Source: Acidimicrobiia bacterium
GTDB lineage: Bacteria > Actinomycetota > Acidimicrobiia > Spongiisociales > UBA5794
Direction of reading: 5' to 3'
DNA: 64,000 nt
Assembly: GCA_030066755.1 (NCBI GenBank)
Contig: JASJAX010000001.1
Span: 14,341-78,340, forward strand
The notes beneath the pieces are model-generated. The model did no database searches and was not told the origin of the DNA. It saw nothing but the letters and a program-made list of their open reading frames with translations. The position numbers and the translations under genes were made by a program. Shown here piece by piece: positions 389-59,482 of the stretch; the first letter of the stretch is position 1, and each line of letters opens with the position of its first letter.

Positions 389-417
389 GAGTAGTGAGTA
401 CCGAGTACTGAGTACCG
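389..417. repeat. heptanucleotide tandem array, about 4 units of GAGTA(C/G)N
   Basis: The sequence gagtagtgagtaccgagtactgagtacc lies between two convergent gene ends. Confidence 0.7.
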
Positions 418-488
418 ACACGTCGGTCGTTTGGTCCGAGGTCCTCGAGCAACCGCACTGCTTCGCAACCGGGGCTGACTCCCCAGTA

Positions 489-3104
489 TCAGAGATCTGG
501 ATCCGGCTGCGCAGCCTGTACGTCCTCGGGGACGGCCCCGGCCAACGCGATCTCGATCGCCTCGGGCAGGTCCAGGACACGACCTGGGGCGACCATTTCT
601 CCCATCCGCCCCTCACCGAAGCGCTCCTTCAGGTTCCCCTTGGCGTCGAAGGCCCCAGCTGTCCCCGGACCCCAACCGGCGCCGGCTCTCTCTCGCTGAG
701 CTTCGGCAGCGCCAACCAGCAGCGCGGCCAGGTCGATGTTGCCGGACTTCAGTTCGATGCTTGCGAGGTATTCGAGCCCCCATGTCTGGAGGAAGACGTC
801 ACTCAGCTTGACTCCTCGTTCCAGGCCGGTGCGTGCTAGACGACCGGCATCTTCGAGCCGGTCTTCCTCCAAGGCGGCACCCGCTTGGGCGTATATCGAC
901 TGCGTGGCCTGGATCTGGCGTCCGGCTTGCTCATAGAGGTCGGCGCTCCGTTCGAACTCCGCCGTCAATCCGGCGAACCCCTTCTCCCTGACCACGGCGA
1001 ACGCATCACCCGCCACGATGTCGGCAACCCCGCCCAGGTCACCCAGCTCGGCGTAGATCGCGCGAGCCTCGTCGAGCAGCGGCACAGCCTCGCTCGGCCG
1101 ATCGGCCACGATCAGGGACGTAGCCAGCCCATAGATGGCGTCCGCCGTCAAGGCGCGATCGCCCAGTGCCTGCGCCCGTTCCACGGCTTGTCGGTAGTCC
1201 TCAACCGCCAGCTGCGCTTCCTCTCGCCAGTAGTAGAGGGCAGCTCGAGCCATCAGTCCCTTGACCCGACCCACACTGTCGGCCTCAGCGGCGGGCAGTG
1301 CAAAGAATCGTTTCAGCCACATCTCGGCCTCCACCAGGTGACCCCGGCTTTGGTAGAAGCGCCAGATGTTGCCGAGGAGCTCCAATCCTCTGTCGGCGTC
1401 TTTGTCCGTGTGGAGCATCGTCAGCACTTCCCTGACGTTCCCGAACTCGTCGTCGAGATGGGACTGCCACCACTCGCCCCGGTCAGACTGAAGCCCCACA
1501 TAGGCCTCATCACCCAGACGGCAGTAGTAGTCCACAAACCGATTCCTGACCCCGTCGCCCTCCTCCGACTCGGCGAGAAGGTGGCGTCCGAAGCGTTGAA
1601 CCCCGTTCAGCATCCGGAACCTGCTCGACGAGCCTGGCTGGCGCAGGAGCATGGACTGATCTACGAGCTCGCCTATCGCGACGAGGGCGTCGGGCACGCC
1701 GTCGCCCCCAGCCACGGCTTCGGCCGCCTTCAGGCTCATGTCGGTGGCGAATACCGAAAGGCGACGGAACACGGTGCGGCCGGTCTCGTTCAACAGGTCA
1801 TAGCTCCATGACAGGGCATCGCTCAACGTCCGCTTCCGTTCCGGCGTGGCCCCTGGCGAGGTGTAGGAGATGCTGCCGGCTTCCATCCGTTCCAGCATCT
1901 CCGCCGGAGACAGCAGATTGACCCGGGCAGCGACCAGTTCGATGGCAAGCGGCAGACCGTCGAGACGGGCCACCAGCGCGACAACGTCCGCAGCATCCGC
2001 CGAGAAGGAAGGGTCCGCGGCGCGAGCACGTTCGTAGAACAGCCGAACGGCGGCAGGGTCTGGCGAACCATTCACGGGAAGTGTCGGCAATACGTAGCGC
2101 TGTTCACCTGCCAGCCGTAGCGGCCCCTGGCTGGTGACCAGGAAACGCGCCTGACCGCTGGCGCTCATCAGCCGACCGAGGTCGTCCGCTGCTTCGACCA
2201 CCTGCTCGAAGTTGTCGAGCAGGAGGAGGGCTTCGGAACCGGCGAGTCGCTCAGAGGTGGCCTCCACGGTGGCAGCGTCGATCTCCAAGGCATCAGCGAT
2301 GGACGGGATGACCAGCGCCGGTTCCGAGACCGCTGAGAGGTCGACGAAGGTGACTCCTCCCGGAAACCGGCCCGCAATGAGGTTCCCGACCGTCACTGCC
2401 AGACTGGTCTTGCCAACACCCCCAGGCCCGAGGATCGTGACGAGACGGTGCTGGTCGATCAACGCGGAGATCGTCTCGATATCCGCGTCGCGCCCGATGA
2501 TCGAAGCGACTCGAGTGGGCAGGTTGTTGGGGATCGAAGAAGTGGTGTTGAGCGGAGGGAACTCGGAAGGCAAACCCGAGAGGATCAGCTGGAAGACCTC
2601 TTCGTCGTTCTCGAGACCGCGGAGGGTGTGTCGCCCCAGCGATCGGTATTCGAACTCGGATCCGGAAAGCAGCCGAGCCGACTCGCTGGCCAACACCTGT
2701 CCCCCGTGCCCAGCCGCCATGATTCGGGCGGCCTTGTGGACTTCGAAGCCCACGTAGTCGCCGTCGGTCACGGTTGCCTCGCCGGTGTGGACCCCAACTC
2801 GGACGCTGATGTCTCCACCCTCAGGCCATTCCTTGGCGTACATACGCTGCTGGATCCCGCCGGCTGCCCTCACGGCGCCTGCCGCGCTCGGGAATGCGGC
2901 AAACACCCCGTCGCCTGTTGTATTGACTTCAACACCCCCCGAGCCTGCGACCTCGTCTCGGATCATCGAGAAGTGTTCGGCAACGAGCGCGGCATAGTCG
3001 GCACCGAACTTCTGGGCCAACGCGGTCGAGCCCTCGATATCGGTGAACACGAAAGTCACTGTTCCCAGGGGAAGTTCTTGCGCCATTGGTTCGTAGTCTG
3101 CCAT
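489..3104 (-). CDS. class III adenylate/guanylate cyclase fused to an AAA/NB-ARC ATPase and TPR repeats (large signal-transduction regulator; no C-terminal LuxR HTH visible)
   Basis: N-terminal FVFTDIEGSTAL and TTGDGVFAAF cyclase motifs. Walker A GPGGVGKTSLA. A long helical repeat C-terminal region. Start chosen at MADYEP (3104); the ORF extends to 3179. Confidence 0.75.
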   Translation of the reverse strand: MADYEPMAQELPLGTVTFVFTDIEGSTALAQKFGADYAALVAEHFSMIRDEVAGSGGVEVNTTGDGVFAAFPSAAGAVRAAGGIQQRMYAKEWPEGGDISVRVGVHTGEATVTDGDYVGFEVHKAARIMAAGHGGQVLASESARLLSGSEFEYRSLGRHTLRGLENDEEVFQLILSGLPSEFPPLNTTSSIPNNLPTRVASIIGRDADIETISALIDQHRLVTILGPGGVGKTSLAVTVGNLIAGRFPGGVTFVDLSAVSEPALVIPSIADALEIDAATVEATSERLAGSEALLLLDNFEQVVEAADDLGRLMSASGQARFLVTSQGPLRLAGEQRYVLPTLPVNGSPDPAAVRLFYERARAADPSFSADAADVVALVARLDGLPLAIELVAARVNLLSPAEMLERMEAGSISYTSPGATPERKRTLSDALSWSYDLLNETGRTVFRRLSVFATDMSLKAAEAVAGGDGVPDALVAIGELVDQSMLLRQPGSSSRFRMLNGVQRFGRHLLAESEEGDGVRNRFVDYYCRLGDEAYVGLQSDRGEWWQSHLDDEFGNVREVLTMLHTDKDADRGLELLGNIWRFYQSRGHLVEAEMWLKRFFALPAAEADSVGRVKGLMARAALYYWREEAQLAVEDYRQAVERAQALGDRALTADAIYGLATSLIVADRPSEAVPLLDEARAIYAELGDLGGVADIVAGDAFAVVREKGFAGLTAEFERSADLYEQAGRQIQATQSIYAQAGAALEEDRLEDAGRLARTGLERGVKLSDVFLQTWGLEYLASIELKSGNIDLAALLVGAAEAQRERAGAGWGPGTAGAFDAKGNLKERFGEGRMGEMVAPGRVLDLPEAIEIALAGAVPEDVQAAQPDPDL

Positions 3105-3219
3105 CAATCGGATAGACGGGAGGTGTTGGTGCTCTCGACGCAAGAAGAGGTTCGAAACCGGACAGGGCTCGAACCTCATCAGTAGTCGGTAGCCAGAGGT
3201 AAGTCTCAGTGGTGCCGAA

Positions 3220-3254
3220 TACTCGGTACTCAGTACTCGCTACTCAGTACTCAA
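3220..3254. repeat. heptanucleotide tandem array, 5 units of TACTC(G/A)N
   Basis: tactcgg tactcag tactcgc tactcag tactcaa. Lies between the cyclase-regulator start and the tRNA-Ala terminator. Confidence 0.75.
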
Positions 3255-3281
3255 GAAGCCCGGCGTTGAGCCGGGCTTCTT
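3253..3281 (-). terminator. GC-rich hairpin (12-bp stem) immediately 3' of tRNA-Ala
   Basis: aagaagcccggc-gttga-gccgggcttctt is a perfect inverted repeat, 1 nt downstream of the tRNA 3' end on the minus strand. The U-tract is weak. Confidence 0.5.
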
Positions 3282-3282
3282 G

Positions 3283-3356
3283 TGGAGGTGACGGGATTTG
3301 AACCCGTGACTTCTACGTTGCGAACGTAGCGCTCTGCCGGGCTGAGCTACACCCCC
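3283..3356 (-). tRNA. tRNA-Ala: tRNA-Ala (anticodon CGC)
   Basis: Read by hand on the reverse complement. Acceptor stem GGGGGUG/CACCUCC with a G3:U70 wobble pair, the Ala identity element. D stem GCUC/GAGC. Anticodon stem CUACG/CGUAG with loop UUCGCAA. T arm ACGGG-UUCAAAU-CCCGU. Discriminator A. CCA is not encoded. Confidence 0.85.
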
Positions 3357-3410
3357 GGGCAGCGCCGAAGTGTAGCCACTGGGGGAACGATTCGAGCCGC
3401 CGGGTTCAGC

Positions 3411-3743
3411 ATGAGGCCGTACGATGGAGGGGTGGCACCCTCATCGACTCCGGGGCGCTTGCCCCTCTTGGCGCTGGCGATCGCAGCCGCAGTTTCCATC
3501 GGTGTGTTGATGGTCGCAACGCCCCCCGAGCAGGCAACGACTCCGCCGACGGGTCAAACTCAGGTCGCACCGCTCGCCGAACCGGCCGACGCCCCAGCCG
3601 ATGTGCTTGTGCCCGGCGACATGGGTCGGGTGCTCTCCCCCTTCATGGCGATCCTCGAAGGCGATATTGCCCACGGCGGCGAGAACCGATCCGTTTGGAG
3701 AGCGTCGTCGGACGGCCTCAGCTACTCGGCCACCGGTGATTGA
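3411..3743 (+). CDS. hypothetical small membrane/secreted protein
   Basis: ATG start with a hydrophobic N-terminal segment (LPLLALAIAAAVSIGVLMV). Codon usage is consistent with the neighbours. No homology recognised. Confidence 0.35.
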   Translation: MRPYDGGVAPSSTPGRLPLLALAIAAAVSIGVLMVATPPEQATTPPTGQTQVAPLAEPADAPADVLVPGDMGRVLSPFMAILEGDIAHGGENRSVWRASSDGLSYSATGD

Positions 3744-3748
3744 TTCGG

Positions 3749-4381: not shown

Positions 4382-4385
4382 CAGG

Positions 4386-4817
4386 TCAGCCGGCGACGAC
4401 GCGCACTGTGTGCTGCGCCGGTTCGGTCTCCGTGGCAGCCGGTTGCGAGATCGGCACCACCGGCGCCGGCGCACCCCGCTGACGCAGCTGCATCAAGAGG
4501 GCCACATACCCGGCGATGGCGACATCGAACACCAACGTCACGCCGAGCCAGACGACACTGGAACGCATGATGGCGACGGTCAGCGAGATGATCGCTCCGG
4601 CGGCAAGTGCGTAGAGGAAGCGACGGCGGCGTTCCCGCGCCTTGCGGCGAGCCATGACCTCGGTTCCGGGCACCGTGGCGACCGATGCGAGCAATGCGGT
4701 CGAACGCGCAAAGTCACGAGTTGCATTGATCGGGGCGCGTCGCCGTGACTCGAAGAAACTCGGCAGGAGAAACGCGGCCCAGATGAAGGCAATCAGTATG
4801 AAGGCGAGTATTTCCAT
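4386..4817 (-). CDS. hypothetical membrane protein
   Basis: Two or three predicted TM helices (ILAFILIAFIWAAFLL; AAGAIISLTVAIM; VTLVFDVAIAGYVALLM). Confidence 0.5.
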   Translation of the reverse strand: MEILAFILIAFIWAAFLLPSFFESRRRAPINATRDFARSTALLASVATVPGTEVMARRKARERRRRFLYALAAGAIISLTVAIMRSSVVWLGVTLVFDVAIAGYVALLMQLRQRGAPAPVVPISQPAATETEPAQHTVRVVAG

Positions 4818-5804: not shown

Positions 5805-5838
5805 GTGAGCATCGCCGGCCTCGTCGAGGTGTGAAAGG

Positions 5839-8553: not shown

Positions 8554-8962
8554 CCGCGCTCTGAGGTCGAGACCTGCAAATCAATCCTTCTCAACACCGG
8601 CTCGACGCGCCACAATGGGGCGCGGCGAACTCGAGGAGTGGGAGTTCCGCGTGGTGCGTTTCGGGCGCCTAGCCCAAAACCGAGGGGGAATGACCTCTGT
8701 TTTGAGCTGCCCTCATCGAGTTCGCATCGACCGAGTTCGCCAGGTCCCCTCCCCGGTTGGCTGATCGCAAGTCCCCCACCATTCCCCCTGCTTGCGTGAG
8801 GCTCCCTTCCCTCTTCGGAGGGAGGGGCCGGGGAGGGTTCGCGTGTGAGGCCGCGCGGCGGCCAGTCGCCAGTCGAGACCTGGAGGATCGCAGGCGTTCG
8901 ACTCGTCCTCACCGAAGGGCAGACCACTTCCTTCCCGGGATCGGGTTCGGTACGTTCGTGGC

Positions 8963-9490: not shown

Positions 9491-9553
9491 CGACTGACGA
9501 CTGGCGACTGGCGACTGGCGACTGGCGACTGGCGACTGGCGACTGGCGACTGG
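9491..9553. repeat. heptanucleotide tandem array, 9 units of CGACTG(A/G)
   Basis: cgactga then cgactgg x8. Ends 24 nt upstream of the uppP ATG, in a 95-bp intergenic gap. Confidence 0.85.
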
Positions 9554-9576
9554 CGAAAGCCCTAACCTCAGCCGCC

Positions 9577-10818: not shown

Positions 10819-10850
10819 GCTACCTGGGACTTGGGACTTGAGACCTGGGA
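10819..10850. repeat. heptanucleotide tandem array, about 4 units of AC(C/T)TGGG
   Basis: acctggg acttggg acttgag acctggg. Confidence 0.7.
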
Positions 10851-10857
10851 CGCTCCC

Positions 10858-13824: not shown

Positions 13825-14679
13825 ATGGGCATCGAACGGGTTGGGATCGTCGGCGGCGGTCAGATGGGCGCCGGTATCGCCGAGGTATGCATCAAGGCCG
13901 GTGTCGACGTGTTCGTCCACGAGATCAACGACGACTTGGCGGCCGCAGCGCGGTCGAGGGTCGAGAAATCCCTCGGACGAGCGGTGGAGAAGGGGAAGCT
14001 CGACGAGACGGGCCGCAACGAGGCGTTGTCCTTGCTGCGGACCGGCAGTGACCTCGACGCCATGGCCGACCGTGATCTCGTCGTCGAGGCTGTGATCGAG
14101 GATGAGGGCATCAAGAAGGCCCTCTTCGAAGACCTCGACCGTATCGTCGAATCAACGAGCGCAATCCTGGCGTCGAACACTTCGTCGATTCCGATCACAC
14201 GAATTGGCCAAGCGACGTCACGACCGGAAGCCGTCGTCGGGATGCACTTCTTCAACCCGGCACCAGTGATGCCCCTCGTCGAGATCGTGCGGAGCCCGGT
14301 GAGCAGTGACGACACCGTGGAGCGTGCGGCGTCGTTCGCTGCGGACCGGCTTGGCAAGACCGTGGTGCACGCCAAGGATCGGGCCGGCTTCATCGTCAAC
14401 ATGCTCCTGTGTCCGTACATCATCGACGCGATCCGGATGTACGAGTCGGGCTTCGCCACCAAGGAGGACATCGACGCCGGAATGGTGAACGGCGCCGGCT
14501 ATCCCATGGGACCGCTGACCCTGAGCGACCTGATTGGCAATGACACGATGCTCGCCGTAGCCGAGTCACTCTTCGAGGAGTTCCGCGAGGCCCGCTACGC
14601 CCCGCCGCCACTGCTCAAGCGCATGGTGGAGGCGGGCCTGCTCGGCAGGAAGACCGGCCAGGGGTTCTACTCGTATTGA
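13825..14679 (+). CDS. 3-hydroxyacyl-CoA / 3-hydroxybutyryl-CoA dehydrogenase
   Basis: GIVGGGQMGAGIA Rossmann motif, NTSSI, and the C-terminal 3HCDH domain. GGAGG upstream. Confidence 0.85.
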   Translation: MGIERVGIVGGGQMGAGIAEVCIKAGVDVFVHEINDDLAAAARSRVEKSLGRAVEKGKLDETGRNEALSLLRTGSDLDAMADRDLVVEAVIEDEGIKKALFEDLDRIVESTSAILASNTSSIPITRIGQATSRPEAVVGMHFFNPAPVMPLVEIVRSPVSSDDTVERAASFAADRLGKTVVHAKDRAGFIVNMLLCPYIIDAIRMYESGFATKEDIDAGMVNGAGYPMGPLTLSDLIGNDTMLAVAESLFEEFREARYAPPPLLKRMVEAGLLGRKTGQGFYSY

Positions 14680-14704
14680 GTACTGAGAACTGAGTACTGA
14701 GACT
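14675..14704. repeat. heptanucleotide tandem array, 4 units of TGAG(T/A)AC
   Basis: tgagtac tgagaac tgagtac tgagact. Starts at the stop codon of the upstream gene. Confidence 0.7.
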
Positions 14705-16721: not shown

Positions 16722-16893
16722 GAAGGTCCTGGGTCGGGTTCTCTCCGTGCGAACGCACGAGGGCACCGAAGTATGCCGGGCACGGAGACGTGTACCAAGT
16801 TCTGCAGTGTGGCCGACCCAGGCGCCTCCAGCCGCCGGCACCCAGCCTCCAGTGTTGGACACTCGCTCCCGAACGCGAGTGCCCGCACTACAG

Positions 16894-16935
16894 GCTGGTG
16901 GCTGGTGGCTGGTGGCTGGTGGCTGGTGGCTGGCC
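16894..16935. repeat. heptanucleotide tandem array, about 6 units of GCTGGTG
   Basis: gctggtg x5 then gctggcc. Lies in the divergent promoter region between the thioredoxin gene and an SDR gene, 38 nt before the SDR ATG. Confidence 0.8.
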
Positions 16936-21683: not shown

Positions 21684-21737
21684 GGTTGAACCTCCGGGCA
21701 GTCGTCGACGTTGCGGCTGCTCAGTACCAGCCAGTAC

Positions 21738-22706
21738 TCACTCTAGTCGATGCTGCACGGCAACGCCGGGGAGCGGACGTGAACGTTCGGCCGCCCGAGC
21801 GCGTGCGACGGTGACGACGGTGACTCCCGCGATCACCATGACCAGACCGGCCCACTGAGACAGCGAGAAGACCTCCTGGAAGATGAGATACGCCCACAGG
21901 ATGGTTCCCGCCGGCTGCAGGACGAGCAACATCGATGTCTCCCACGCCTCGATCAGCGGCAACGTCGCATTGATCAACAGCCACCCCACGACCTGCGACC
22001 CCAGGGCAAGCAAGAGCAGCCACCCGTGGGACGGCCACGAGATGGCCAGCGAGAAGCCTCCGTCGAACGGCGCGAGGGCGAGTGCGCCGACCGCCGCTCC
22101 GGCCGTTGCATCCAGCAATGACTCGGCAGGCGACGCGCCTGCGGTGCCCGCTCCACGAAGCAGGAGCACGTACGTCGTGTACAGCACAGCGGTGAGGACG
22201 CCGAACACGACGCCCAGAACCGGATCCTCACCCTGTGCGTCGGCGCTCCCGAATCCCGAGATGAACACCACGCCGACCATGACGACCGGTGTCGCCAGCA
22301 CCGCAAGCGACGTCGGTCGCTGACGCAACAGCAACCACCCAGCCAGCATGGTTGTGACGACGTGCACGCTGCCGACCACGGTCGCAAGACCTGCGCCGAT
22401 GAGTTCGATGGCGACATGCCACGCTGCGAGATCGCCGGCGAACGCAAACCCGGCACCAAAGGCCATGAGACGTTGGGAGCGGGTTCGCATCGAGCTGCGA
22501 CGCATCGCACGACTCAGAAGCCACAGCGCGGGCACCGCGTAGGCCGTCCGAAAGAACGCAACGGTGATGGGCGACGCCTCGGAGAGACGCACGAAGATCG
22601 CGCTGAACGAGATGATGGCCACGCCGAGCACCATTCGCCAGCGAAGCATTGCCCCGGAACCGGCGGGTGATCGTGCCGAGGTCATCCGCTCACACTCGGC
22701 GGACAA
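21738..22706 (-). CDS. EamA/DMT-family transporter
   Basis: About 10 TM helices with two EamA-like halves. Confidence 0.75.
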   Translation of the reverse strand: MSAECERMTSARSPAGSGAMLRWRMVLGVAIISFSAIFVRLSEASPITVAFFRTAYAVPALWLLSRAMRRSSMRTRSQRLMAFGAGFAFAGDLAAWHVAIELIGAGLATVVGSVHVVTTMLAGWLLLRQRPTSLAVLATPVVMVGVVFISGFGSADAQGEDPVLGVVFGVLTAVLYTTYVLLLRGAGTAGASPAESLLDATAGAAVGALALAPFDGGFSLAISWPSHGWLLLLALGSQVVGWLLINATLPLIEAWETSMLLVLQPAGTILWAYLIFQEVFSLSQWAGLVMVIAGVTVVTVARARAAERSRPLPGVAVQHRLE

Positions 22707-24534: not shown

Positions 24535-24686
24535 GGAGACTCCGGCCGTCCGGTACGGCCGAGTATCCACCCTTCCCGTCGCACTTGCCGGGCGCCAGGC
24601 GACCGCAGGCGGCAGGTCGAAACTGATATGATCAGCGTTGGACCAGCACCATGACGAAGCCACGGCGCTGAAGACGTGCCGACTGA

Positions 24687-24700
24687 GTACTGATCAGTAC
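24687..24700. promoter_or_regulatory. perfect 14-bp palindrome GTACTGATCAGTAC, a candidate TetR operator
   Basis: Perfect palindrome 45 nt upstream of the E1-alpha start and downstream of tetR. A related half-site, CTGATATGATCAG, is at 24623-24635. It also fits the heptamer-family motif. Confidence 0.35.
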
Positions 24701-30115: not shown

Positions 30116-30244
30116 CGAGTATCCCCCTCCCTTCCAGGGAGGGGGTGGCCTCCACGCAGTGGAGGTCGGGGAGGGTGTCACCGGTGGTTGGAGTAGCGGT
30201 GAACCCCTGTCCGGACCGGGCAACTCCGTTCAACCGACACCGCT

Positions 30245-30312
30245 CCGAACCGCGGAAACCCTCCCCTGGCTGCTGGCGCAGCCTGTCCCCGCCCTACAAG
30301 GGCGGGGGATCC
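30245..30312. repeat. conserved two-hairpin intergenic element, copy A
   Basis: ccgaaccgcggaaaccctcccctg, then GGCTGC-tggc-GCAGCC, then ctgt, then CCCCGCCC-tacaa-GGGCGGGG-gatcc. About 90% identical to the copy at 45270-45336. Followed by a heptamer array. Confidence 0.75.
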
Positions 30313-30318
30313 GCCTAG

Positions 30319-30353
30319 GACCTGGGACTTGCGACCTGGGACCTGAGACTCGG
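30319..30353. repeat. heptanucleotide tandem array, 5 units of GAC(C/T)TGN
   Basis: gacctgg gacttgc gacctgg gacctga gactcgg. Confidence 0.75.
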
Positions 30354-30360
30354 CTCTCCG

Positions 30361-30741
30361 TCAGGAGCGCCGCGCCACCGCATCGATCTGCACCTTGGCG
30401 CCCTTCCACAGGAAGGCGACTCCGTAACTGCATCGCGCGGGGTACGGCTCGCGGAACCGCTCGGCGTAGATGCGATTCATGTCGTCGAGATCGTCTTCGT
30501 CGACGAACTGGATGCTGGTGTGCACGACCTGCTCGAGCGACGACCCAGCTTCCTCGAGGATCGCCTCGAGGTTGCTGATGGCCCGATGAAACTCGGGGTC
30601 GAAACCGCCGGGGACAAAGTCGCCCGATCCGGGGTCGCGGCCGATCTGTCCGGTCACCCAGACGTGATCGCCGTCGATGCGGACATGAGGGTACGGACCG
30701 CGCGGCTCCGGTGCTGATTCGGTCGTGATGGTTTCGCTCAT
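30361..30741 (-). CDS. RidA-family (YjgF/TdcF) reactive-intermediate deaminase
   Basis: 126 aa. PYPHVRIDGDHVWVTGQIG...PARCSYGVAFLWKGAKVQID is the RidA signature. Confidence 0.85.
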   Translation of the reverse strand: MSETITTESAPEPRGPYPHVRIDGDHVWVTGQIGRDPGSGDFVPGGFDPEFHRAISNLEAILEEAGSSLEQVVHTSIQFVDEDDLDDMNRIYAERFREPYPARCSYGVAFLWKGAKVQIDAVARRS

Positions 30742-36122: not shown

Positions 36123-36132
36123 GGGCCAGAGG

Positions 36133-36206
36133 GTAGCGAGTAGCGAGACGAGTCAGCTCTTGGGACCGGGTGTCTCCGGACTCAGTACTCGGTACTCAGT
36201 ACTGCG
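36133..36206. repeat. two adjacent heptanucleotide arrays (GTAGCGA x2-3; ACTC(A/G)GT x4)
   Basis: gtagcgagtagcgagacgagt ... actcagtactcggtactcagtactgcgg. Confidence 0.7.
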
Positions 36207-36217
36207 GCCGTAGGCCG

Positions 36218-37168
36218 CTACGCGTGGCCTGGCGGATTCTTGATCGACTCGATGGCGCGGCGGCGATTCTCGACGATCTCCTTGGCGATCTGGTCGAGGG
36301 AGTCCATGAGCCAGAGGTGAGCGGCCTTGCCGGGTCGATAGTCGGCTTCGGCCATTCCCTGGATCCTGCCCTGCTCCTGGAGTTGCTTCACCTGTTTGTG
36401 GTTGTTGCGAGGCTCGAGGTTGTAGACCCCGAGCGTCTTGCCGCCGCTCTGGTTGAGAATCGAGAAGACCGGAACGTCGCTGGGACCGTCGGCGATGTAG
36501 ATCATGTTGCGCAGCGGAACCCGGCGTTGCGCCTCCGACATCCGGGCATTCACATCGATCTGAGGGTTCTTGTTGACGCCCTTGTTGATCTCGAACAGCG
36601 CTCTGGTCTTGGACGTGTGACCGATGAACTGACCGAGATGGCGGATCTCGGTCGGAGGGTCGGCGACCGGGAGCCGATCGACGAAACCCGGTGGCGCAGT
36701 GTGCTCGACATAGGAGTTGGCCCAGATGCCGTCGATGTGGGGAGCGATAGCGGATCCCTGGATCATCGGGAGGATCCCCGTCGAGACAACGTAGTGCTCG
36801 ACAGTGATTCCCTCACCGGCGTACTCGGGAACGCCGGCGACATGTTTGCGCGTGCTCTCGAAGAACTCGGGGATCCCGGGGCAGAACTCGAGGTTGGCCC
36901 CGAGTTCCTTGAGCTTGGCGTTGGTGAGCCCGGCGAAGACCCCTTGCTCCACGTACGTGAGGATGTGGAGGAGGTACGCCATGTCCCGGGCGAGCAGCTC
37001 CCGACGCTCGTCGTGCCAGCGCACCATGGATTCGACCTCGGTCCAGAAGTCCCCGGCGTCCACGCCGTACTCGTCGAAGATCGGCGTCTGCATGTTGTCC
37101 GGGATCAACGTGCGATCGAAGTCCCAGATGAACGCAATGACAGTCTGCGTATGCAGCGGCACAGGCAT
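36218..37168 (-). CDS. HAD-superfamily hydrolase
   Basis: FIWDFDRTLIP (DxD motif I) ... IYIADGPSD (motif IV). Confidence 0.6.
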   Translation of the reverse strand: MPVPLHTQTVIAFIWDFDRTLIPDNMQTPIFDEYGVDAGDFWTEVESMVRWHDERRELLARDMAYLLHILTYVEQGVFAGLTNAKLKELGANLEFCPGIPEFFESTRKHVAGVPEYAGEGITVEHYVVSTGILPMIQGSAIAPHIDGIWANSYVEHTAPPGFVDRLPVADPPTEIRHLGQFIGHTSKTRALFEINKGVNKNPQIDVNARMSEAQRRVPLRNMIYIADGPSDVPVFSILNQSGGKTLGVYNLEPRNNHKQVKQLQEQGRIQGMAEADYRPGKAAHLWLMDSLDQIAKEIVENRRRAIESIKNPPGHA

Positions 37169-37212
37169 GGGCGAAGGTTAGGCGGCTAGGCAGAGAAATC
37201 GCGGTCTACCCG

Positions 37213-37310
37213 CAAGTAGCCAGTAGCCAGTAGCCAGTAGCCAGACCCTGGGGCTCCAGGCTTGAGACCTGAGACCTGAGACCTGAGACTTGAGACTTGA
37301 GGCCTGACCT
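37213..37310. repeat. long heptanucleotide array of about 14 units with maintained 7-bp register (CCAGTAG x4 drifting to (C/T)TGAGAC x6)
   Basis: caagtag ccagtag x3 ccagacc ctggggc tccaggc ttgagac ctgagac x3 ttgagac ttgaggc ctgacct. Confidence 0.85.
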
Positions 37311-37755: not shown

Positions 37756-37939
37756 GGTCGTTCCCTCCAATGGTGTAGTTACGCAAGTGTAATTCATCCG
37801 CCGCATGTTCGGGACGAGAACCGCGATCGACGTGCCCGCTCGTCTCGGCAACGCTGAAGAGCGTGACATCAGACGGAGACGTCAGATCGGGGGACCGGTT
37901 CACAGCAGCGAGGTTTCAGCGTGGTCGCCGCGTCCCGGC

Positions 37940-37980
37940 TCGACCGACGACTGACGACTGACGACTGACGACTGACGACA
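37940..37980. repeat. heptanucleotide tandem array, 5-6 units of CGACTGA
   Basis: cgactga x4 flanked by gaccga and cgacaga. About 65 nt upstream of the P-type ATPase ATG. Same unit family as the array upstream of uppP. Confidence 0.85.
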
Positions 37981-38043
37981 GATCCTCCCCCACCCCGCAG
38001 CCTCCGGACGGCCTCCGCAGCCATCCCCGGTAGGCTCGTCCCT

Positions 38044-42467: not shown

Positions 42468-42500
42468 TCTCTGTACTGAGTACTCAGTACTCAGTACTCC
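42468..42500. repeat. heptanucleotide tandem array (T(C/G)AGTAC x4) with a conserved flank
   Basis: gcgtctctgtac tgagtac tcagtac tcagtac tcc. Both flanks match the array at 59448-59482. Confidence 0.8.
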
Positions 42501-45133: not shown

Positions 45134-45269
45134 AGCGCGAAGCCTAGAAGCCGCTCCCGTTCAGGAGTGGTGGCCTCTGCAAAGGAGAGGTCGGGTTGAG
45201 TGTCGACAGCTCATCGCGATCACCGTGGTGCCCGTTTCGAAGGCTGCCGCATCGTCGAACCTGATCGGA

Positions 45270-45336
45270 CCGAACCGTGGAAACCCTCCCCTGCCTGCTA
45301 CGCAGGCTGTCCCCGCCCTACAAGGGCGGGGGATCC
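45270..45336. repeat. conserved two-hairpin intergenic element, copy B
   Basis: ccgaaccgtggaaaccctcccctg, then GCCTGC-tac-GCAGGC, then tgt, then CCCCGCCC-tacaa-GGGCGGGG-gatcc. The first stem has a compensatory G:C to C:G swap relative to copy A. Followed by a heptamer array. Confidence 0.75.
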
Positions 45337-45380
45337 TGAGACCTGGGACCTGAGACGTGCGACCGGGGACCTGAGACGCG
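45335..45380. repeat. heptanucleotide tandem array, about 6 units of CTG(A/G)GAC
   Basis: ctgagac ctgggac ctgagac gtgcgac cggggac ctgagac. Confidence 0.75.
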
Positions 45381-48696: not shown

Positions 48697-48769
48697 GCCC
48701 CAGTAGCTCAGGGGATAGAGCACCGGTTTCCTAAACCGGGTGTCGGAGGTTCGAATCCTCCCTGGGGCA
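48697..48769 (+). tRNA. tRNA-Arg: tRNA-Arg (anticodon CCU)
   Basis: Read by hand. Acceptor stem GCCCCAG/CUGGGGC. D stem GCUC/GAGC. Anticodon stem CCGGU/ACCGG with loop UUCCUAA. T arm GGAGG-UUCGAAU-CCUCC. Discriminator A. No CCA encoded. Confidence 0.85.
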
Positions 48770-49186
48770 CTCGGCGCCTGCCGGCTCCGCCGGCGGCGCT
48801 CCGCTCGCGGGCTCGCCGAGATCCGATGGCTACTCGCCATCGGACTCTCACCTCTCCCTGGGATCTCACTCCACCGGGGTCCTAGCTGCGAGACCCCGAC
48901 CGATCAGAACAGCGCCGCCGGGCGCAACCATGGGCAGCCCGCGACCCAAGAGCGAGGGTTCGAATCCTCCCTGGGGCACTCGGCGCCTGCCGGCTCCGCC
49001 GGCGGCGCCTCGTTCGCGTGAGTTCCGAGATCCGATGGCTGCTCGCCATCAGACTCTCACCTCTCCCTGGGATCTCACTCCACCGGGGTCCTAGCTGCGA
49101 GACCCCGATCTTCTAGAACAGCGCCGCCGGGCGCAACCATGGGCAGCCCGCGACCCAAGAGCGAGGGTTCGAATCCTTCGTGCCAA
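48744..49186 (+). repeat. 209-bp tandem direct repeat (2 full copies plus a truncated third) whose units begin with the tRNA-Arg 3' end
   Basis: The period is exactly 209 bp: ttcgaatcc recurs at 48750, 48959 and 49168. Copies are about 93% identical. Each unit starts with gagggttcgaatcctccctggggcac. A degenerate unit tail recurs at 49375-49457 after an unrelated insert of about 190 bp. Confidence 0.85.
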
Positions 49187-49521
49187 ACGGAACGAACCGC
49201 TGCTGCGCCGACCTCACACGACCAACGAACGGAACACCCACTCCTCTGGCCGCCTCCGGCGAGCGCGACCGCCGCGAATAGTCCCCCCGAAGGGGGGAAG
49301 GTACCGCCGGCCGAACAGGCCGGGGGTAGGGGGGATCAGCACTCGTCGACCACCGCACACAACCCCTCGGGATGCTGGCTGCGAGACCCCGACCGATCAG
49401 AACAACGCCGCCGGACGCAACCATGGGCAGCCCGCAACCCAAGAACGAGAGGCTCGGTGAGTACTGCAGCCGAAGGCTGCACGGCCTGCCGAGTAGCGCG
49501 TGGGCTCGGTAGGTTGGTGCC

Positions 49522-53921: not shown

Positions 53922-56900
53922 ATGTCAGTTGATCGATCCGTGCTCAGGCCGCCGCTTTGGTACAAGGACGCCGTCATCTATGAGGTGCACGTGCGTGCCT
54001 TTGCCGACTCCAACGACGACGGCATCGGCGACTTCCCCGGCATCACGTCGCGACTCGACTACCTGAGCCGCCTCGGCATCAACACCATCTGGCTGCTGCC
54101 CTTCTATCCGTCGCCGCTGCGCGACGACGGATACGACATCGCCGAGTACTACGACGTCCACCCGAGTTACGGCACATTGGACGACTTCAAGGCATTCCTC
54201 GACGCCGCGCACTCACGCAACATGCGGGTGATCACCGAGGTCGTCATCAACCACACATCAGACCAGCACCCGTGGTTCCAGCGCGCCCGCCGTGCCGAAC
54301 CCGGCACACCCGAACGGGACTTCTACGTCTGGAGCGACACCCCCGACAAGTACGGCGATGTCCGGATCATCTTCTCCGACACCGAGACATCGAACTGGAC
54401 GTGGGATCCGGTCGCCGATGCGTACTACTGGCACCGGTTCTTCTCCCACCAACCCGACCTCAACTACGACAACCCGTTGGTGAAGGAAGCCGTCACTGAC
54501 GTGCTCCGGTTCTGGCTGGACATGGGCGTAGATGGTGTCCGGCTCGATGCGATTCCCTATCTGTTCGAGCGGGAAGGAACGAACGGCGAGAACCTCCCGG
54601 AGACCCACGAAGAGCTGAAGCGCCTCCGCTCCTTCGTCGACGACAACTACGACAACCGCTTGCTGCTCGCCGAAGCCAACCAATGGCCGGAGGACTCCGT
54701 GGCCTACTTCGGCGATGGCGACGAGTGCCACATGGCGTTCCATTTCCCGCTCATGCCCCGGCTCTATCTCGCCCTCGAACGGGAGAGCCGCCTGCCGATC
54801 ATCGACATCCTCGAGCAGACACCCGAGATTCCCGAAACGGCCCAATGGGCGATCTTCCTGCGCAACCACGACGAACTCACGCTCGAGATGGTGTCCGAAG
54901 AGGAACGCGACTTCATGTGGCGCACCTATGCGCCCGATCGGCGCGCTCGGCTCAACATGGGGATTCGCCGGAGGCTGGCTCCGCTGATGGGAAACGATCG
55001 GCGCCGCATCGAACTGCTCTACAGCCTCCTGCTCTCGCTCCCCGGCACGCCGGTTCTCTACTACGGCGACGAGCTCGGAATGGGCGACAACATATTCCTC
55101 GCCGACCGCGACGGTGTCCGGACTCCGATGCAGTGGAGCAACGACCGCAACGCCGGGTTCTCGAAGGCGAACCCTCAGTCGCTGTACCTGCCGGCCATCG
55201 TCGACCCGCAGTTCCACTTCGAGACGGTCAACGTCGAAGCGCAGCAGGCCAACCCCAACTCGCTCCTGTCGTGGACCCGCGGCATGATCCGGCGCCGGCA
55301 ACGTCATCCTGTGTTCGGCCGTGGCTCCATCGAGTTCCTCCATCCGGAGAACGACCGGGTCCTGGCGTATCTGCGCGAGAGCGACGACGAAACCATCCTC
55401 GTCGTCGCCAATCTCAGCCGGCACGCCCAGTTCGTCGAGCTCGACTTGAGCCAGTTCGCCGGGCACCGGCCGAACGAGCTCCTCGGCCGGACCGAGTTCC
55501 CCACCATCGGCGAGTTGCCGTACCTGCTCACCATCGGCCCGTATGGCTACTACTGGTTGTCGTTGACGAGCTCGGACACAACGAGCGATGGCGTCGAATC
55601 AACGCTCGTGATCGACGGCGCGGTGGAGAGCGCCTTCGCCTCCGACAGCCCGCTCCTCCCCCACCTGACGTCCTTCATTGCCCGACAGCCTTGGTTCCTC
55701 GGACGGAATCGGCGAGTCCTCGCCGTCGAGGTGTTCGACCTGATGCCGGTGACTCCCGGGGCAGCCGATCCGGAGCGCTGGATCGCGATCATCCGCGTCG
55801 ACTACCGCGCCGGGGCCCCCGACCTCTACGTCGTTCCGCTGGCCGCACAGTTCGGCGACCCACCAAACGTCGACGACGACGCCATTGTCGTTCGGGTCGA
55901 ACGTGACGGAACGCCTGGTGTCATCTACAACGGCCTGACCGACGACGGATTCCGAGCCGCGCTACTCGACGCCGTCCTCGGAAGCGAGACGCTCCTCGGC
56001 CGCACCGGTGCGTTGAGCTGCACCGTGGGCCCCGCCGCTTCGGTTCTCGACATCGACGAGACACCCCAGTCACGGGTCGTGACGACGAGCCAGGGCGAAA
56101 CCCACATCGAGTACGCCGACGGTGTGGCCATCAAGCTCTACCGCAGGATCGAACCAGGCGTCAACCCGGACCTGGAGCTGCGGCGATTCCTGACAGAACG
56201 CACCGCGTTCGAGGCGCTTCCCAACGTGTACGGCTCGCTCGACTACCGGAGCGGCGACACGTACACGATTGGTGTGCTGCAAGCGTCCTTCTCCGGTAGC
56301 CCGACGGCGTGGAGCCGCTTCGAGCGACATTGTGCCCGATGGCTCAACGCGATCGACGCTGCGGAGACTCCCCCCGAACCTCCTGCGCTGGGGTGGGCTT
56401 CTGCCGAGGTCGAGTTGGACCTGCCCAAGCGCAAGAAGCTCGCCGCTTCGCTCGAGCTCGCACGGAAGCTGGCCGCGACCACGGCTCAGCTCCACCTCGC
56501 GCTCGCAACACTGAGCGAGGACCCCGATATGCGACCGGTGGGCTTCTCCCAGCTCTATCAGCACGCGCTGTACCAATCCCTGCGTGCAACCGTCCGTCAG
56601 GAGTTGCGCCGGCTCCGCCGGATGACCAACGGCACCAACGGCACCAACGACGCCGCCGACGTCAGCCTCTCCGACGTATTGGCTGCAGAGGGTCGAATGC
56701 TGGAGCTGCTCGATCCGATCCGTCGTAATCCGATGGCCGGACAGCGTGTCCGAGTCCACGGCGACTACCGGCTCGACGAGGTGCGGATCGTCGACGACGA
56801 GTTCATGCTCGTCGACTTCTCCGGCGATCACGCCAGCCCGCTCAGCGAGCGGCGACTTCGCGCTTCACCGCTCCGTGATGTTGCCCAGATGCTCCGATCG

Positions 56901-57197
56901 CTCGACTACGTCGCGGTGGTCTCGGCGAGCCGCATCGGGAGCGAAGCCGACTCGTGGGCACCGTGGTGGGCACGCGCCGTCGGCCTGGAGTTCGTGCAGG
57001 CGTACCTGTCGGCCATGGAGGATTCGCCGGCTCTGCCGGACGATGCCGCCGACATCGACTCGCTCCTCACCGCGTACACGCTCACCCGTTCGCTCAGCGA
57101 GCTGCATTGGGAAGCCGAGGTTCGCCCAGACTGGATCGACGTTCCGATCGCGGGAATCCGCAGGATCATCAGCTCGCAGGACGGCGAGAACGACTGA
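53922..57197 (+). CDS. treS: trehalose synthase fused to maltokinase (TreS-Mak/Pep2)
   Basis: N-terminal GH13 TreS ([11 protein letters not shown]...[13 protein letters not shown]...[11 protein letters not shown]) plus a C-terminal kinase-like maltokinase domain. 1091 aa. Confidence 0.9.
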
Positions 57198-57199
57198 GC

Positions 57200-57931
57200 T
57201 CAGTTGGATCGGGCGCCGGCCAACGCTTCGAGGACGTCGGCGACACCGTCGGGATCGTCGACACGGAACTCGGCGGCGGTCGCACCCTCACCGACTTTCA
57301 CGCCGACATCCCCAGCAACGAGCGTCCTGAGCACGTCCTCGTCGGTGGTGTCGTCACCGAGGAACACCACTGCCGTCGCACCCACCCGGCGCCGCCGATC
57401 GGCAATAGCCGTGCCTTTGTCGCCGTCGCCCACCAGGAGCTCGACCACCTCCTTGCCGAGGATCATTCGCACCCCCAACCGATGCCCAACCGCCTGCGCC
57501 GCGGCAGATGCCGCCGGCTGGTCGGTTGCCTGTCGATAGTGCAGCGACGCGCCACTCGGCTTCGGCTCGAGCAGCGTGCCCTCGTGGTTTGCGGCGACCT
57601 CCTGGAGTGCAGCGACGAGCTCACGGACCCGAGCCGCCTGATCTGGATCGGCATCCTCGGACGTCTCCGTCCCGTGCGTACCGATGAGCATGATGGAGTC
57701 GGGCGCGTCGGTCAGCTCCGCCAACACACTTCGCTCGCGCCCGGAGATGATCACCGCGTGCACGCCCGACATCTGGGAGAGCCGGACCAACGCGGCGAGT
57801 GCTCGCGCATGTGGTTTGGCCTCCGCAGGGTCGGGCACCAAGGGAGACAATGTCCCATCGAAATCGGCAGCCACCAGCAACTCGGATGTCTGCGCAACAC
57901 GTTCGAGTGCGGTTCGCAGGGCCGGATCCAT
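57200..57931 (-). CDS. otsB: trehalose-6-phosphate phosphatase OtsB
   Basis: HAD motif I LVAADFDGTLSP ... motif III VVFLGDDTTDED. One-nt TGATG overlap with otsA. Confidence 0.8.
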   Translation of the reverse strand: MDPALRTALERVAQTSELLVAADFDGTLSPLVPDPAEAKPHARALAALVRLSQMSGVHAVIISGRERSVLAELTDAPDSIMLIGTHGTETSEDADPDQAARVRELVAALQEVAANHEGTLLEPKPSGASLHYRQATDQPAASAAAQAVGHRLGVRMILGKEVVELLVGDGDKGTAIADRRRRVGATAVVFLGDDTTDEDVLRTLVAGDVGVKVGEGATAAEFRVDDPDGVADVLEALAGARSN

Positions 57932-59301
57932 CAACGAGTCTCCAAGGTCGAGAGACACCGCTGCGCCCACTCGAACACATCCGACTCCCGAACGACCCGC
58001 TGAAGCTTCCGCATGCGGGTCTTGACCTCACGGTCGGACATGGAGGCAGCCTGCTGCATGGAGTCCGTCACGCCATCGACGTCGTAGGGGTTCACGATGA
58101 TCGCCGAGCGCATCTGTTCTGCGGCACCGGCGAACTCCGACAGGATAAGGACGCCATCGCCGTCGACGCGGCACGCTGCGTACTCCTTGGCAACGAGGTT
58201 CATCCCGTCACGCAACGGCGTGACGAGCATGACATCGGCGGCGACGTAGTAGGCGATGATCTCCTCGAAGGGCAGCGTGCGATACAGGTACGAGACCGGC
58301 GACCATCCCGGCGCTCCATAGGCGCCGTTGATCCGACCGACGAGTTGCTCGATTTCGGCGCGCAACTGCTGGTAGGCCGGCACCTGCTCCCGGCTCGGCA
58401 CTGCGGCCTGCACAAACGCAAACCTCCGCTCGCCCTCCGCAGCTCGTTCCAGGAGGCCGGCGAAGGCCTTCAGCCGCAGATCGATGCCCTTCGTGTAGTC
58501 GAGGCGATCCATCCCCAGGATGATGTGGTCGACGTCACCGAGTTCATGACGCACCTCGGCGGCGCGCCGCTGAACCTGCGGCAGACGGGCCATCCGTTCG
58601 AACTCGGCTGTGTCGATCGCTATCGGTGCTGGCTGGAGGTGCACCGCCCGACCCGCCCACTGCAAGTCCCGCCGACCGAGCGAAACGGCACCGGCAAAGC
58701 GACGGGCAGCCCTTGCGAAGTTGTCGGCGCTTTGCCGGGTCTGGAACGCAATCACATCCGATCCGAGCAGCCCTTCGAGGATCTGGCGACGCCACGGCAG
58801 GCGAGCAAAGACCTCGACGGGCGGGAAGGGGATGTGCAGGTAGAAGCCGATCGTCACCTCGGACCGCATCGCCCGGAGCATCGATGGCACCAGCTGCAGC
58901 TGGTAGTCCTGCACCCATGCAATGTCGCCGGGACGAACGGCGGCGGCCGTCTCCTCGGCGTAGCGGCGATTCACCGCTACGTACGGTCGCCACGTGTGTC
59001 GATGGAACTCGGGAGGAACAATGGCGTCGTGGTAGAGCGGCCAGAGCGTGCCGTTGCAGAACCCGTAGTAGAACCCGTCCACTTCCTCGGTGCTGAGCGG
59101 CACCGGACGCTGCTCGATGCCGTCGTGCTCAAACGGCTCGTGATGGGAGTCGGGAATCCCCGGCCAACCGACCCAGGCGCCCTCGGCCTCCTGGAGCACC
59201 GGAGTGAGTGCCCGCACCAATCCGCCTGGACTCGCCACCCACTGCTCGCCGTTCCACGAGACCGGCAGCCGGTTGGCCACAACGATGATCCGTTGGCCCA
59301 C
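57931..59301 (-). CDS. otsA: alpha,alpha-trehalose-phosphate synthase OtsA (GT20)
   Basis: IIVVANRLPV...FLHIPFP...DYTKGI...LRDGMNLVAKEY are GT20 motifs. GTG start with GGGAAGGGGA upstream. Confidence 0.85.
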   Translation of the reverse strand: MGQRIIVVANRLPVSWNGEQWVASPGGLVRALTPVLQEAEGAWVGWPGIPDSHHEPFEHDGIEQRPVPLSTEEVDGFYYGFCNGTLWPLYHDAIVPPEFHRHTWRPYVAVNRRYAEETAAAVRPGDIAWVQDYQLQLVPSMLRAMRSEVTIGFYLHIPFPPVEVFARLPWRRQILEGLLGSDVIAFQTRQSADNFARAARRFAGAVSLGRRDLQWAGRAVHLQPAPIAIDTAEFERMARLPQVQRRAAEVRHELGDVDHIILGMDRLDYTKGIDLRLKAFAGLLERAAEGERRFAFVQAAVPSREQVPAYQQLRAEIEQLVGRINGAYGAPGWSPVSYLYRTLPFEEIIAYYVAADVMLVTPLRDGMNLVAKEYAACRVDGDGVLILSEFAGAAEQMRSAIIVNPYDVDGVTDSMQQAASMSDREVKTRMRKLQRVVRESDVFEWAQRCLSTLETR

Positions 59302-59316
59302 GAACGTCCCCTTCCC

Positions 59317-59351
59317 TCGAGTAGCGAGTAACGAGTAGCGAGTAGCGAGAC
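59317..59351. repeat. heptanucleotide tandem array (CGAGTA(G/A) x4)
   Basis: cgagtag cgagtaa cgagtag cgagtag cgagacc. Immediately upstream of otsA. Confidence 0.75.
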
Positions 59352-59447
59352 CACATCGGGTGACGAAATCGCTCTCTCGAAGCTCGCCGCTACGCCGAGC
59401 GTAATGCGGTCGCGACCCCGAGTATCTACTTCTTGGCCGCCTCGCCG

Positions 59448-59482
59448 TCTCTGTACTCAGTACTCGGTACTCAGTACTCCGA
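59448..59482. repeat. heptanucleotide tandem array (TC(A/G)GTAC x4) with a conserved flank
   Basis: gccgtctctgtac tcagtac tcggtac tcagtac tcc. Same flanks as the array at 42468-42500. Confidence 0.8.

Follow-up and report, generated by a model that had tools for sequence, protein, structure and literature searches.

Tandem arrays of 7-nt units form the dominant class of long simple sequence repeats (SSRs) in prokaryotes according to the survey of Mrázek, Guo and Shah (2007), in which, as summarised in later papers (PMC4679880, PMC4692102), the heptamers are mostly non-coding, phylogenetically scattered and already recorded in Actinobacteria. In this work, such arrays are described in a 64,000-nt stretch of DNA (hereafter, the window; contig JASJAX010000001.1, positions 14,341 to 78,340) from a metagenome-assembled genome (MAG) of Acidimicrobiia, identified as the source through exact protein matches to a 93-kb contig. 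The GC content is 63-67% throughout the window, and the high-GC actinobacterial host guessed in an initial annotation made from the letters of the window is correct. The arrays resemble the repeats of the 2007 survey in the over-representation of 7-nt units compared with other periods and in their mostly non-coding location, whereas that study, as far as its summaries go, is survey-level and covers neither the Acidimicrobiia lineage nor the units GAGTACY, GACYTGR and CGACTGR found here; the strain-level turnover and orientation data presented below are additions to that description. The suggestion of the initial annotation that heptamer arrays are undescribed in high-GC actinobacteria is not supported, because the survey, in the summary of PMC4679880, includes Actinobacteria and an analogue is present in high-GC Xanthomonas (PMC4692102). 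A literature search for these unit strings found no relevant paper.

Several heptamer families are defined by the sequences of their units. The STRR1-3 families of heterocystous cyanobacteria consist of the units CCCCAGT, TTGGTCA and CAACAGT, and STRR1 (equivalent to ACTGGGG) and STRR3 (equivalent to ACTGTTG) share the ACTG core seen in the window. The label "STRR-like" initially given to the arrays is fair as an analogy, in that both are scattered between genes as arrays of 7-nt units and comprise several unit families in each genome; however, phylum, GC content and units differ and STRR arrays can be much longer, and by unit sequence and host the arrays of Acidimicrobiia are not strict STRR members. 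The TAACTGA repeats of marine Beggiatoaceae, cyanobacteria and Bacteroidetes (MacGregor 2015, PMC4679880) are likewise short intergenic heptamer arrays (2-6 copies) in unrelated phyla; ACTGA occurs within their unit and likewise within GTACTGA and CGACTGA of the window, their orientation is reported to be biased relative to genes, and a role at the RNA level has been proposed for them. They lie mostly immediately upstream of start codons, in the forward orientation, whereas the arrays of the window lie mostly after stop codons or in inter-cistronic spacers and contain no TAACTGA units.

The GGGAATC repeats of Xanthomonas conserve their position but vary in length and sequence between close relatives (Rehm et al. 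2015, PMC4692102). Together, the GGGAATC and GGGGA(T/C)T repeats of Xanthomonas and Nostoc are similar to the present arrays in being intergenic, in forming occasional inverted pairs and, for Xanthomonas, in the high-GC host, but their G-tract-rich units form G-quadruplexes (PMC4692102), whereas the units described here lack G-runs and thus do not have a tract of at least three G in every unit. In the (ATCTTTC)n repeats of hmw1A/hmw2A of H. influenzae, a repeat arm pairs in a long hairpin, which can be compared with the array pairs 36133/36180 and 59317/59448 of the window; the hmw repeats, however, are phase-variable and confined to one locus, number at least 11, are hypervariable within populations and control an adhesin (PMC12721329), whereas the present arrays are spread over many loci beside housekeeping genes, have 3-9 units each and are stable at 99.5% identity or more. 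Finally, contiguous 7-mers without spacers differ from the 23-50 nt repeats with unique spacers of CRISPR. The arrays are real, occur throughout the lineage and belong to the broad kind surveyed by Mrázek and colleagues, without matching the sequence definitions of STRR, TAACTGA or GGGAATC.

Period-7 arrays in the window

Using Tandem Repeats Finder (TRF), with the units then laid out in sevens, 16 period-7 arrays of a few related unit classes were identified at the places listed in the initial annotation, the dispersed array family of which is thereby confirmed. The clearest arrays span 9491-9556, 16893-16933, 37215-37244, 37263-37307, 37941-37979, 45335-45377, 59318-59349 and 59449-59479; further TRF spans are 389-418, 3220-3253, 10825-10851, 14677-14702, 30314-30349, 36133-36147, 36180-36203 and 42469-42499. 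Some of the initial boundaries had to be revised: 36133-36206, taken for a single array, consists of two short ones (2.1 and 3.4 copies) with non-repeat sequence between them, and the supposed 14-unit array at 37213-37310 consists of two neighbours with different units (4.3 and 6.4 copies). The weak arrays at 24681-24700 and 21716-21748 were missed by TRF and contain at most 2-3 degenerate units each, and that at 8851-8871 comes down to a two-copy match at 8861-8875, near chance level.

The arrays consist of head-to-tail 7-nt units in at least three copies, as in the Mrázek-type heptanucleotide SSRs, and occur at a density of one per 3.8 kb of the window. In a separate period scan, between 7 and 9 arrays, varying with the threshold, were found for period 7, against 0-2 for each other period from 4 to 14 and approximately none of period 7 in shuffled window sequence, and hence the excess is specific to period 7; the pattern GAGTANY x3 alone was observed 9 times against 0.00 expected. 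Because the same arrays recur in independent MAG and Logan assemblies, an assembly artefact is excluded. By unit, the arrays were assigned to class 1 (GAGTACY, equivalent to GTACTGA; 7 arrays), class 1b (GAGTAGC; 2), class 2 (GACYTGR; 4), class 3 (CGACTGR; 2), class 4 (CTACTGG; 1) and class 5 (GCTGGTG; 1), and after rotation a CTGR core is common to most units.

The arrays were placed against genes called with a codon-usage model trained on long open reading frames (ORFs). All 17 are intergenic or begin at a stop codon, as the initial annotation had stated and as is usual for Mrázek-type repeats, and public gene calls on near-identical contigs show gaps at the same arrays. Intergenic DNA makes up 10.5% of the window, and the arrays, which sum to 604 nt, occupy 9% of it. 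Among the spacers of at least 60 nt, 14 of 34 contain arrays (3 of 6 convergent, 9 of 18 co-directional and 2 of 10 divergent). The earlier observation that arrays start exactly at a stop codon applies to those at 389 and 14675, many others lying 7-30 nt from a stop or start, and such proximity is largely to be expected because the spacers are short. GC-rich hairpins, initially said to adjoin many arrays, are found beside approximately 6 of 15 (stems of -15 to -28 kcal/mol); a succession of stop codon, hairpin and array is repeated at 3220 (after tRNA-Ala), 36180, 45335 and 59448.

Occurrence in the lineage and in other phyla

The arrays are not a local oddity. In a separate 43 kb of metagenome contigs of the same lineage that do not overlap the window, 8 period-7 arrays were found, against 0-2 for other periods, with the same unit classes, so that dispersal over many loci, another property of Mrázek-type repeats, extends to unrelated contigs, and other Acidimicrobiia MAGs also carry GAGTACY arrays, five of them within 630 nt in one case. 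A scan of GTDB species genomes for GAGTACY x3, the figures of which are lower bounds, gave more than 117 loci in at least 8 phyla among the matches listed; these include Acidobacteriota, Planctomycetota, Gemmatimonadota, Chloroflexota, Acidimicrobiia, Bacteroidota, Nostocales and a few Proteobacteria, and several genomes are matched on two or three contigs. In the 848 kb of matched loci, 230 arrays have period 7, and no other period exceeds 24. Besides GAGTACY, these loci hold 99 arrays of 72 other units, among which GAGT/ACTC and CTGA/TCAG are over-represented in a sample biased by its selection through GAGTACY.

In viral contigs, GAGTACY x3 was found in 14 stretches on 9 contigs, and composition-matched permuted heptamers gave 4, 9 and 9; since the control heptamers are about as common, GAGTACY is not shown to be clearly special. 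Scans for five phased ACTG cores and for the control cores AGTC, ATCG and GTCA were all saturated and give no contrast between them. The presence of the same unit in many phyla is an observation, and not evidence of a shared mechanism.

Two further observations concern array clusters. In other lineages (contigs L073, 3649-4276, and L004, L016 and L034), several heptamer arrays lie together with units that drift along the array (GAGTACT to GAGTTCT or GAGTGCT, and GGGTACT), one contig having a 25-unit array; period-8 arrays are somewhat raised in the other-lineage loci (24 versus at most 5 for other periods). In addition, a few IMG/VR contigs (L229, L236, L256 and L267) carry 7-12 separate ACTG-core arrays on both strands within 5-7 kb, a density far above that in control-core scans, among the matches listed.

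Turnover among strains and relatives

Among strains at 96-99% identity, both copy number and unit sequence vary. The array at 9491, upstream of bacA/uppP, has 9 units in the window, mostly CGACTGG, 3.5 units in four other contigs (CGACTGA/CGACCGA) and 10 units in a fifth, with different unit variants homogenised within each allele. The array at 10819 has an equal number of units in strain L129, but 4-5 of them are substituted, amounting to approximately 15% substitutions compared with 1.5-3% in the flanks. In a relative with a 90% identical ATPase (L125/L126), arrays are kept at three of the same sites with altered units and copy numbers; at the site of array 37940, CGACTGG x3.5 replaces CGACTGA x5, and the surrounding spacer can no longer be aligned.

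More distantly, a relative at 82% protein identity (L127) has degenerate arrays only, such as AGTAGCC AGTAGCC GGCAGCC AGTAGCC, and in 22.6 kb of a relative at 73% protein identity (L128) no arrays were found. The presence of the arrays is lineage-specific, and the spacers differ in length: orthologous spacers measure 62-118 nt in the 82% and 73% relatives versus 200-290 nt in the window, and the spacer of array 37262 measures 203 nt here versus 62-97 nt in relatives without arrays. The insert in which the array lies is lineage-specific and is flanked on both sides by conserved motifs close to the promoters. In view of the changes at 90-99% identity, and of the missing arrays and shorter spacers in the 73-82% relatives, the arrays sit in young intergenic expansions with quick turnover, although they are not hypermutable on the shortest timescale.

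Origin of the arrays and alternative explanations

The explanation that we favour, with about even confidence, is that slippage at replication gave rise to the arrays as heptanucleotide microsatellites, which are confined to non-coding DNA by selection against frameshifts and subject to rapid turnover. A short heptamer seed arising in non-coding DNA would be lengthened and shortened as the strands slip. With a unit length that cannot be divided by 3, an array within a gene would shift the reading frame and be removed by selection, so that arrays would last only in spacers; the initial remark that a 7-bp unit cannot be tolerated in frame thus accounts for the exclusion from genes, but not for the enrichment of period 7 alone. 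The arrays would lengthen intergenic regions and be replaced within roughly species-to-genus divergence. Existing arrays may seed new ones through local inverted copying and hitch-hiking on a small dispersed element, which is likely the reason why a few unit families dominate the lineage. The arrays would be transcribed within 3' or 5' untranslated or inter-cistronic RNA, most of them probably being near-neutral spacers, and any effect on neighbouring genes would be secondary. Among 144 GAGTANN arrays from the window and the loci of other phyla, 78, 42, 12, 4, 3 and 3 have 3 to 8 units, respectively; copy number thus falls off roughly geometrically with no preferred length, as a birth-death slippage process would give. 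From these patterns we infer slippage as the generating process, the near-neutrality of the arrays and the cause of period 7, for which Mrázek et al. proposed, according to the summaries of their survey, the length of DNA held by the polymerase (PMC4679880, PMC4692102).

A number of observations weigh against this explanation. Neutral slippage leaves unaccounted for the absence of the other frame-shifting periods, 4-6 and 8-12, the dominance of a few units and the 2:1 strand bias described below. No indels were found in 10 array-by-strain comparisons at 99.5-99.8% identity (L001, L119-L124), which covered the arrays at 14675, 16893, 21716, 24681, 37213-37310, 37940, 59317 and 59448; the only array differing between strains at 99.7% identity, that at 42468, shows edge changes only. 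Since copy numbers are unchanged at this distance, the slippage rate is modest. Also, no decayed period-7 signal was detectable in the remaining intergenic DNA of the window after masking of the arrays (lag-7 autocorrelation 0.283 versus a baseline of approximately 0.275), and the idea of decayed arrays was dropped. Two spacers, 36123-36217 and 59302-59501, each contain one class 1 array and one inverted class 1b array, and of the 4 class 2 arrays, 3-4 run antisense to the genes beside them. With respect to the upstream gene, GAGTAC is on the sense strand in 12 cases and antisense in 5 in the pooled lineage contigs, and at loci of other phyla with a long ORF ending just upstream, the sense view gave 40 and the antisense view 19. 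This sense-strand bias is real but modest, approximately 2:1, and relies on rough gene calls.

The same bias is an argument for the main rival explanation, under which the arrays would be cis-acting RNA elements that serve as punctuation within operons and determine how stable the neighbouring genes' transcripts are or how they are translated; on balance we regard it as unlikely, though it is the best of the alternatives. In one variant, the arrays would offer tandem 7-nt sites for a single-strand OB-fold protein (a cold-shock or S1 domain with a footprint of approximately 6-7 nt), and in another, two inverted arrays within one spacer would be the arms of an interrupted hairpin cut by RNase III. 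Wherever the gene context in the window leaves no ambiguity, class 1 arrays read in the sense direction of the gene upstream, and 5 of 7 start 0-29 nt after a stop codon. Spacers that hold a gene 3' end contain arrays in 12 of 24 cases, versus 2 of 10 for purely divergent ones. Both inverted pairs (36133/36180 and 59317/59448) pair heptad against heptad on the mRNA strand to give a long interrupted helix, and there are precedents in the (ATCTTTC)n repeats of hmw, which act through a transcribed 5'-untranslated hairpin cut by RNase III (PMC12721329), and in the binding of Csp, S1 or CsrA proposed by MacGregor for the TAACTGA repeats (PMC4679880). However, the orientation bias is only approximately 2:1, the folding z-scores of the two pairs relative to shuffles are weak (-2.3 and -0.9), and the unit classes are too different for a single binding specificity; moreover, the same spacers lack arrays in the 73-82% relatives and the units change freely, which argues against a conserved requirement.

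An improbable alternative is that the arrays are contingency loci, as suggested in the initial annotation, or "rheostat" loci, in which a change of copy number in promoters or 5' untranslated regions would tune or switch the adjacent gene. The positions of arrays 9491, 16893 and 37940, 16-63 nt upstream of start codons, the 3.5, 9 or 10 units of array 9491 among strains and the hmw precedent (PMC12721329) are consistent with it. The fit is nevertheless poor, because phase-variable SSRs are hypervariable in copy number among very close strains, whereas here copy number is constant in the ten comparisons at 99.5-99.8%, bar the edge changes in one array, and varies at 96-99% only. Furthermore, most arrays lie 3' of genes or in convergent spacers, the arrays are short (3-9 units), and the neighbouring genes are metabolic or housekeeping rather than surface or antigen genes.

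It is also conceivable, but quite doubtful, that heptamers with ACTG(A/G) or GAGT cores constitute one cross-phylum class of cis-elements read mostly on the sense strand of the transcript. The candidates for such a class would be GAGTACY, CGACTGR and CTACTGG here, TAACTGA in Beggiatoaceae, cyanobacteria and Bacteroidetes, and STRR1 and STRR3 in cyanobacteria; their reader would be a conserved OB fold of the cold-shock or S1 type with a 7-nt footprint, or the units would form RNase III hairpins. If this were true, the 7-nt period would reflect a protein footprint rather than polymerase slippage, and the bacterial heptamer excess would have a function.

The next alternative, which we consider very doubtful, treats the arrays as cargo or footprints of mobile DNA, namely of a non-autonomous element of approximately 190 nt with inverted GGATCCCCC ends. 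Two copies of this dispersed element are present in the window. The first (30119..30312, + strand; element length 190-195 nt) has the inverted ends GGATCCCCC...GGGGGATCC and a heptamer array at its right end; in the second (approximately 45143..45336, + strand), the left end is degenerate and its boundary approximate. The ends can also be given as GGATCCCCCTCCC...GGGCGGGGGATCC, with subterminal hairpins at both ends, and the element contains a conserved long-range complement (GGGGAGGGT...ACCCTCCCC) and several conserved hairpins. At least 16 distinct copies were found in metagenome contigs (L170, L172, L174, L175, L177-L179, L181-L183, L185-L188, L190 and L191). It has the appearance of either a non-autonomous element of the MITE or PATE type or a structured RNA family of the lineage that has so far escaped recognition. 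While the element fits the REP/MITE description, the arrays, which have no defined ends or inverted termini and vary in copy number, do not, and the two are separate entities.

The arrays at 30314 and 45335 share idiosyncratic imperfect units, and therefore the class 2 arrays at the two window copies were copied together with the element. A heptamer array lies at or within 60 nt of the right end of both window copies and of approximately 8 of the 16 metagenomic ones, several of which also have arrays upstream. Enrichment beside the element is, however, not convincing, given that 14 of 34 spacers of at least 60 nt already hold arrays; of the 17 arrays in the window, the element touches only 2, the class of the flanking array differs from copy to copy, and arrays occur in phyla not known to have the element.

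Highly improbable, finally, are DNA-level sites (for nucleoid or regulatory proteins, for primase starts at CTG, for recombination signals or as restriction-modification-related GTAC clusters), for which the CTGR core shared by most units, the 21-bp spacing of three units, which would correspond to two helical turns, and the GCTGGTG x6 array at 16893, which contains the E. coli Chi octamer, can be cited, but against which stand the lack of bias of the CTGR strand relative to replication (+ in 10 arrays and - in 5, with uniformly negative GC skew; the primase idea was rejected), the lack of avoidance or enrichment of GTAC outside the arrays (observed/expected 0.87), for which a link of the GTAC/AGTACT core to restriction-modification or methylation was rejected, the rapid turnover of units and the orientation of class 1, which follows genes and not the chromosome strand.

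A separate idea, that the units provide stop codons in all three frames, was also rejected: units in the window often contain TGA or TAG, but among the 72 cross-phylum units, stop-containing ones are not enriched (38 versus 36.1 expected), and an apparent depletion of ATG in these units is a depletion of ApT-containing triplets.

Individual arrays and neighbouring features

The class 1 arrays begin with that at 389..417 (+ strand, GAGTA(G/C)Y x4), directly after the TAG stop of the + gene 2-388 in a convergent spacer. The array at 3220..3254 (- strand, GAGTACY x5) is preceded on its strand by tRNA-Ala and a strong hairpin and followed by the start of the cyclase/STAND gene (489-3179). At 14675..14704 (+ strand, GAGTACT/GAGAACT x4), the first unit contains the TGA stop of the + gene 13825-14679, and at 24681..24700 (+ strand), the unit layout reveals a weak, degenerate class 1 remnant of 2-3 units on which TRF is silent. 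The remaining members are on the - strand: 36180..36206 (GAGTACY x3.5) lies 11 nt past the stop of the - gene 36218-37162, 42468..42500 (GAGTACT x4.4) lies between - genes, and 59448..59482 (GAGTACY x4.4) lies 19 nt past the stop of the - gene 59502-60323, from which a hairpin separates it. The class 1b arrays at 36133..36152 (+ strand, GAGTAGC x2.5) and 59317..59351 (+ strand, GAGTAGC/GAGTAAC x4.6) are the inverted partners of 36180-36206 and 59448-59482, respectively. The arrays at 389-417 and 3220-3254 are also inverted copies of each other (30 nt, 93% complementary) and flank a single adenylate-cyclase/STAND/TPR gene (489-3179, - strand), the transcript ends of which could pair.

All class 2 arrays are recorded on the + strand. 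Those at 10819..10851 (GACYTGR x4; 7 nt from the stop of a TPP-enzyme gene) and 37262..37310 (GACCTGA/GACTTGA x6.4) are antisense to flanking - genes. That at 30314..30353 (GACCTGR x5) abuts the right end of the dispersed element, here approximately 194 nt long, 7 nt from the stop of the - gene 30361-30741, and that at 45335..45380 (GACCTGR x6) abuts the right end of the second element copy and is followed by a strong terminator-like hairpin. Class 3 comprises 9491..9556 (+ strand, CGACTGA then CGACTGG x8; 9.4 copies, 98% matches), located 9 nt past the stop of a SAF-domain gene and 23 nt ahead of the BacA/UppP start, and 37940..37980 (+ strand, CGACTGA x5.6), 63 nt upstream of the start of a P-type ATPase. 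The class 4 array at 37213..37244 consists of perfect copies of CCAGTAG (x4.3) on the + strand, that is, CTACTGG on the - strand, sense to the flanking genes, and the class 5 array at 16893..16935 (+ strand, GCTGGTG x6; 5.9 copies with 100% matches by TRF) lies in a divergent spacer just upstream of a + SDR gene with a hairpin on each side.

In the divergent spacer 37756-38043, between a 127-aa gene and the P-type ATPase gene, two short motifs are kept in all relatives (compared spacers: L125 1388-1659, L127 4451-4568 and L128 9915-10000): GTGTAGTTAC..AGTGTAATTCATC beside the 127-aa gene and CCGGTAGGCTCG beside the ATPase start, both of which are probably operator or promoter sites. All of the sequence that separates them, heptamer array included, is specific to the lineage. 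Directly upstream of minus-strand starts, at 36123-36140 and 37169-37185, a purine-rich stretch followed by G(G/T)TAG(C/G) is seen on the + strand (for example, AGAGGGTAGCG and GAAGGTTAGGC), with the same motif in relatives (L125 802-820 and 5343-5360; L127 2779-2795, 3970-3985 and 8335-8350); the mRNA at these starts has CUA(A/C)CCU in place of a Shine-Dalgarno sequence, and this motif seems to be the point from which class 1b (GAGTAGC) arrays have developed in some places.

An Rfam search of the window, at the gathering threshold and at E<=1, returned two tRNAs only, with no match on the arrays or the ~190-nt element. A consensus promoter and terminator scan of 29-46 kb gave fewer matches than shuffled sequence and is uninformative for an actinobacterium with 65% GC. 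Apart from the arrays, a tRNA-Arg(CCT) gene at 48697-48770 has a 3' end (GGTTCGAATCC...) that begins a 209-bp tandem duplication (48748-48956 and 48957-49165, 93% identical), with a third, partial copy at 49368-49449; these repeats (48697-49449) resemble attachment-site remnants of a tRNA-integrated element.

Significance

The excess of heptamers in bacteria has been known since 2007 and is still without explanation, and the hmw repeats of H. influenzae are the only ones to have been dissected experimentally. The window provides a clean example with a high density of arrays, from an uncultured high-GC lineage of soil or freshwater, in which the turnover of arrays can be traced from stability at 99.5% identity or more, through polymorphism at 96-99% and altered units at 90% protein identity, to loss or degeneration at 73-82% protein identity. 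It also offers a measurable, if modest, strand bias and in-register inverted array pairs. In practice, the arrays are markers for strain typing, and they probably also account for breaks in the assembly of such MAGs. Should the strand bias and the pairing be functional, the arrays would represent a widespread layer of operon punctuation; if there is no function, they would be a good natural system for the measurement of period-specific slippage.

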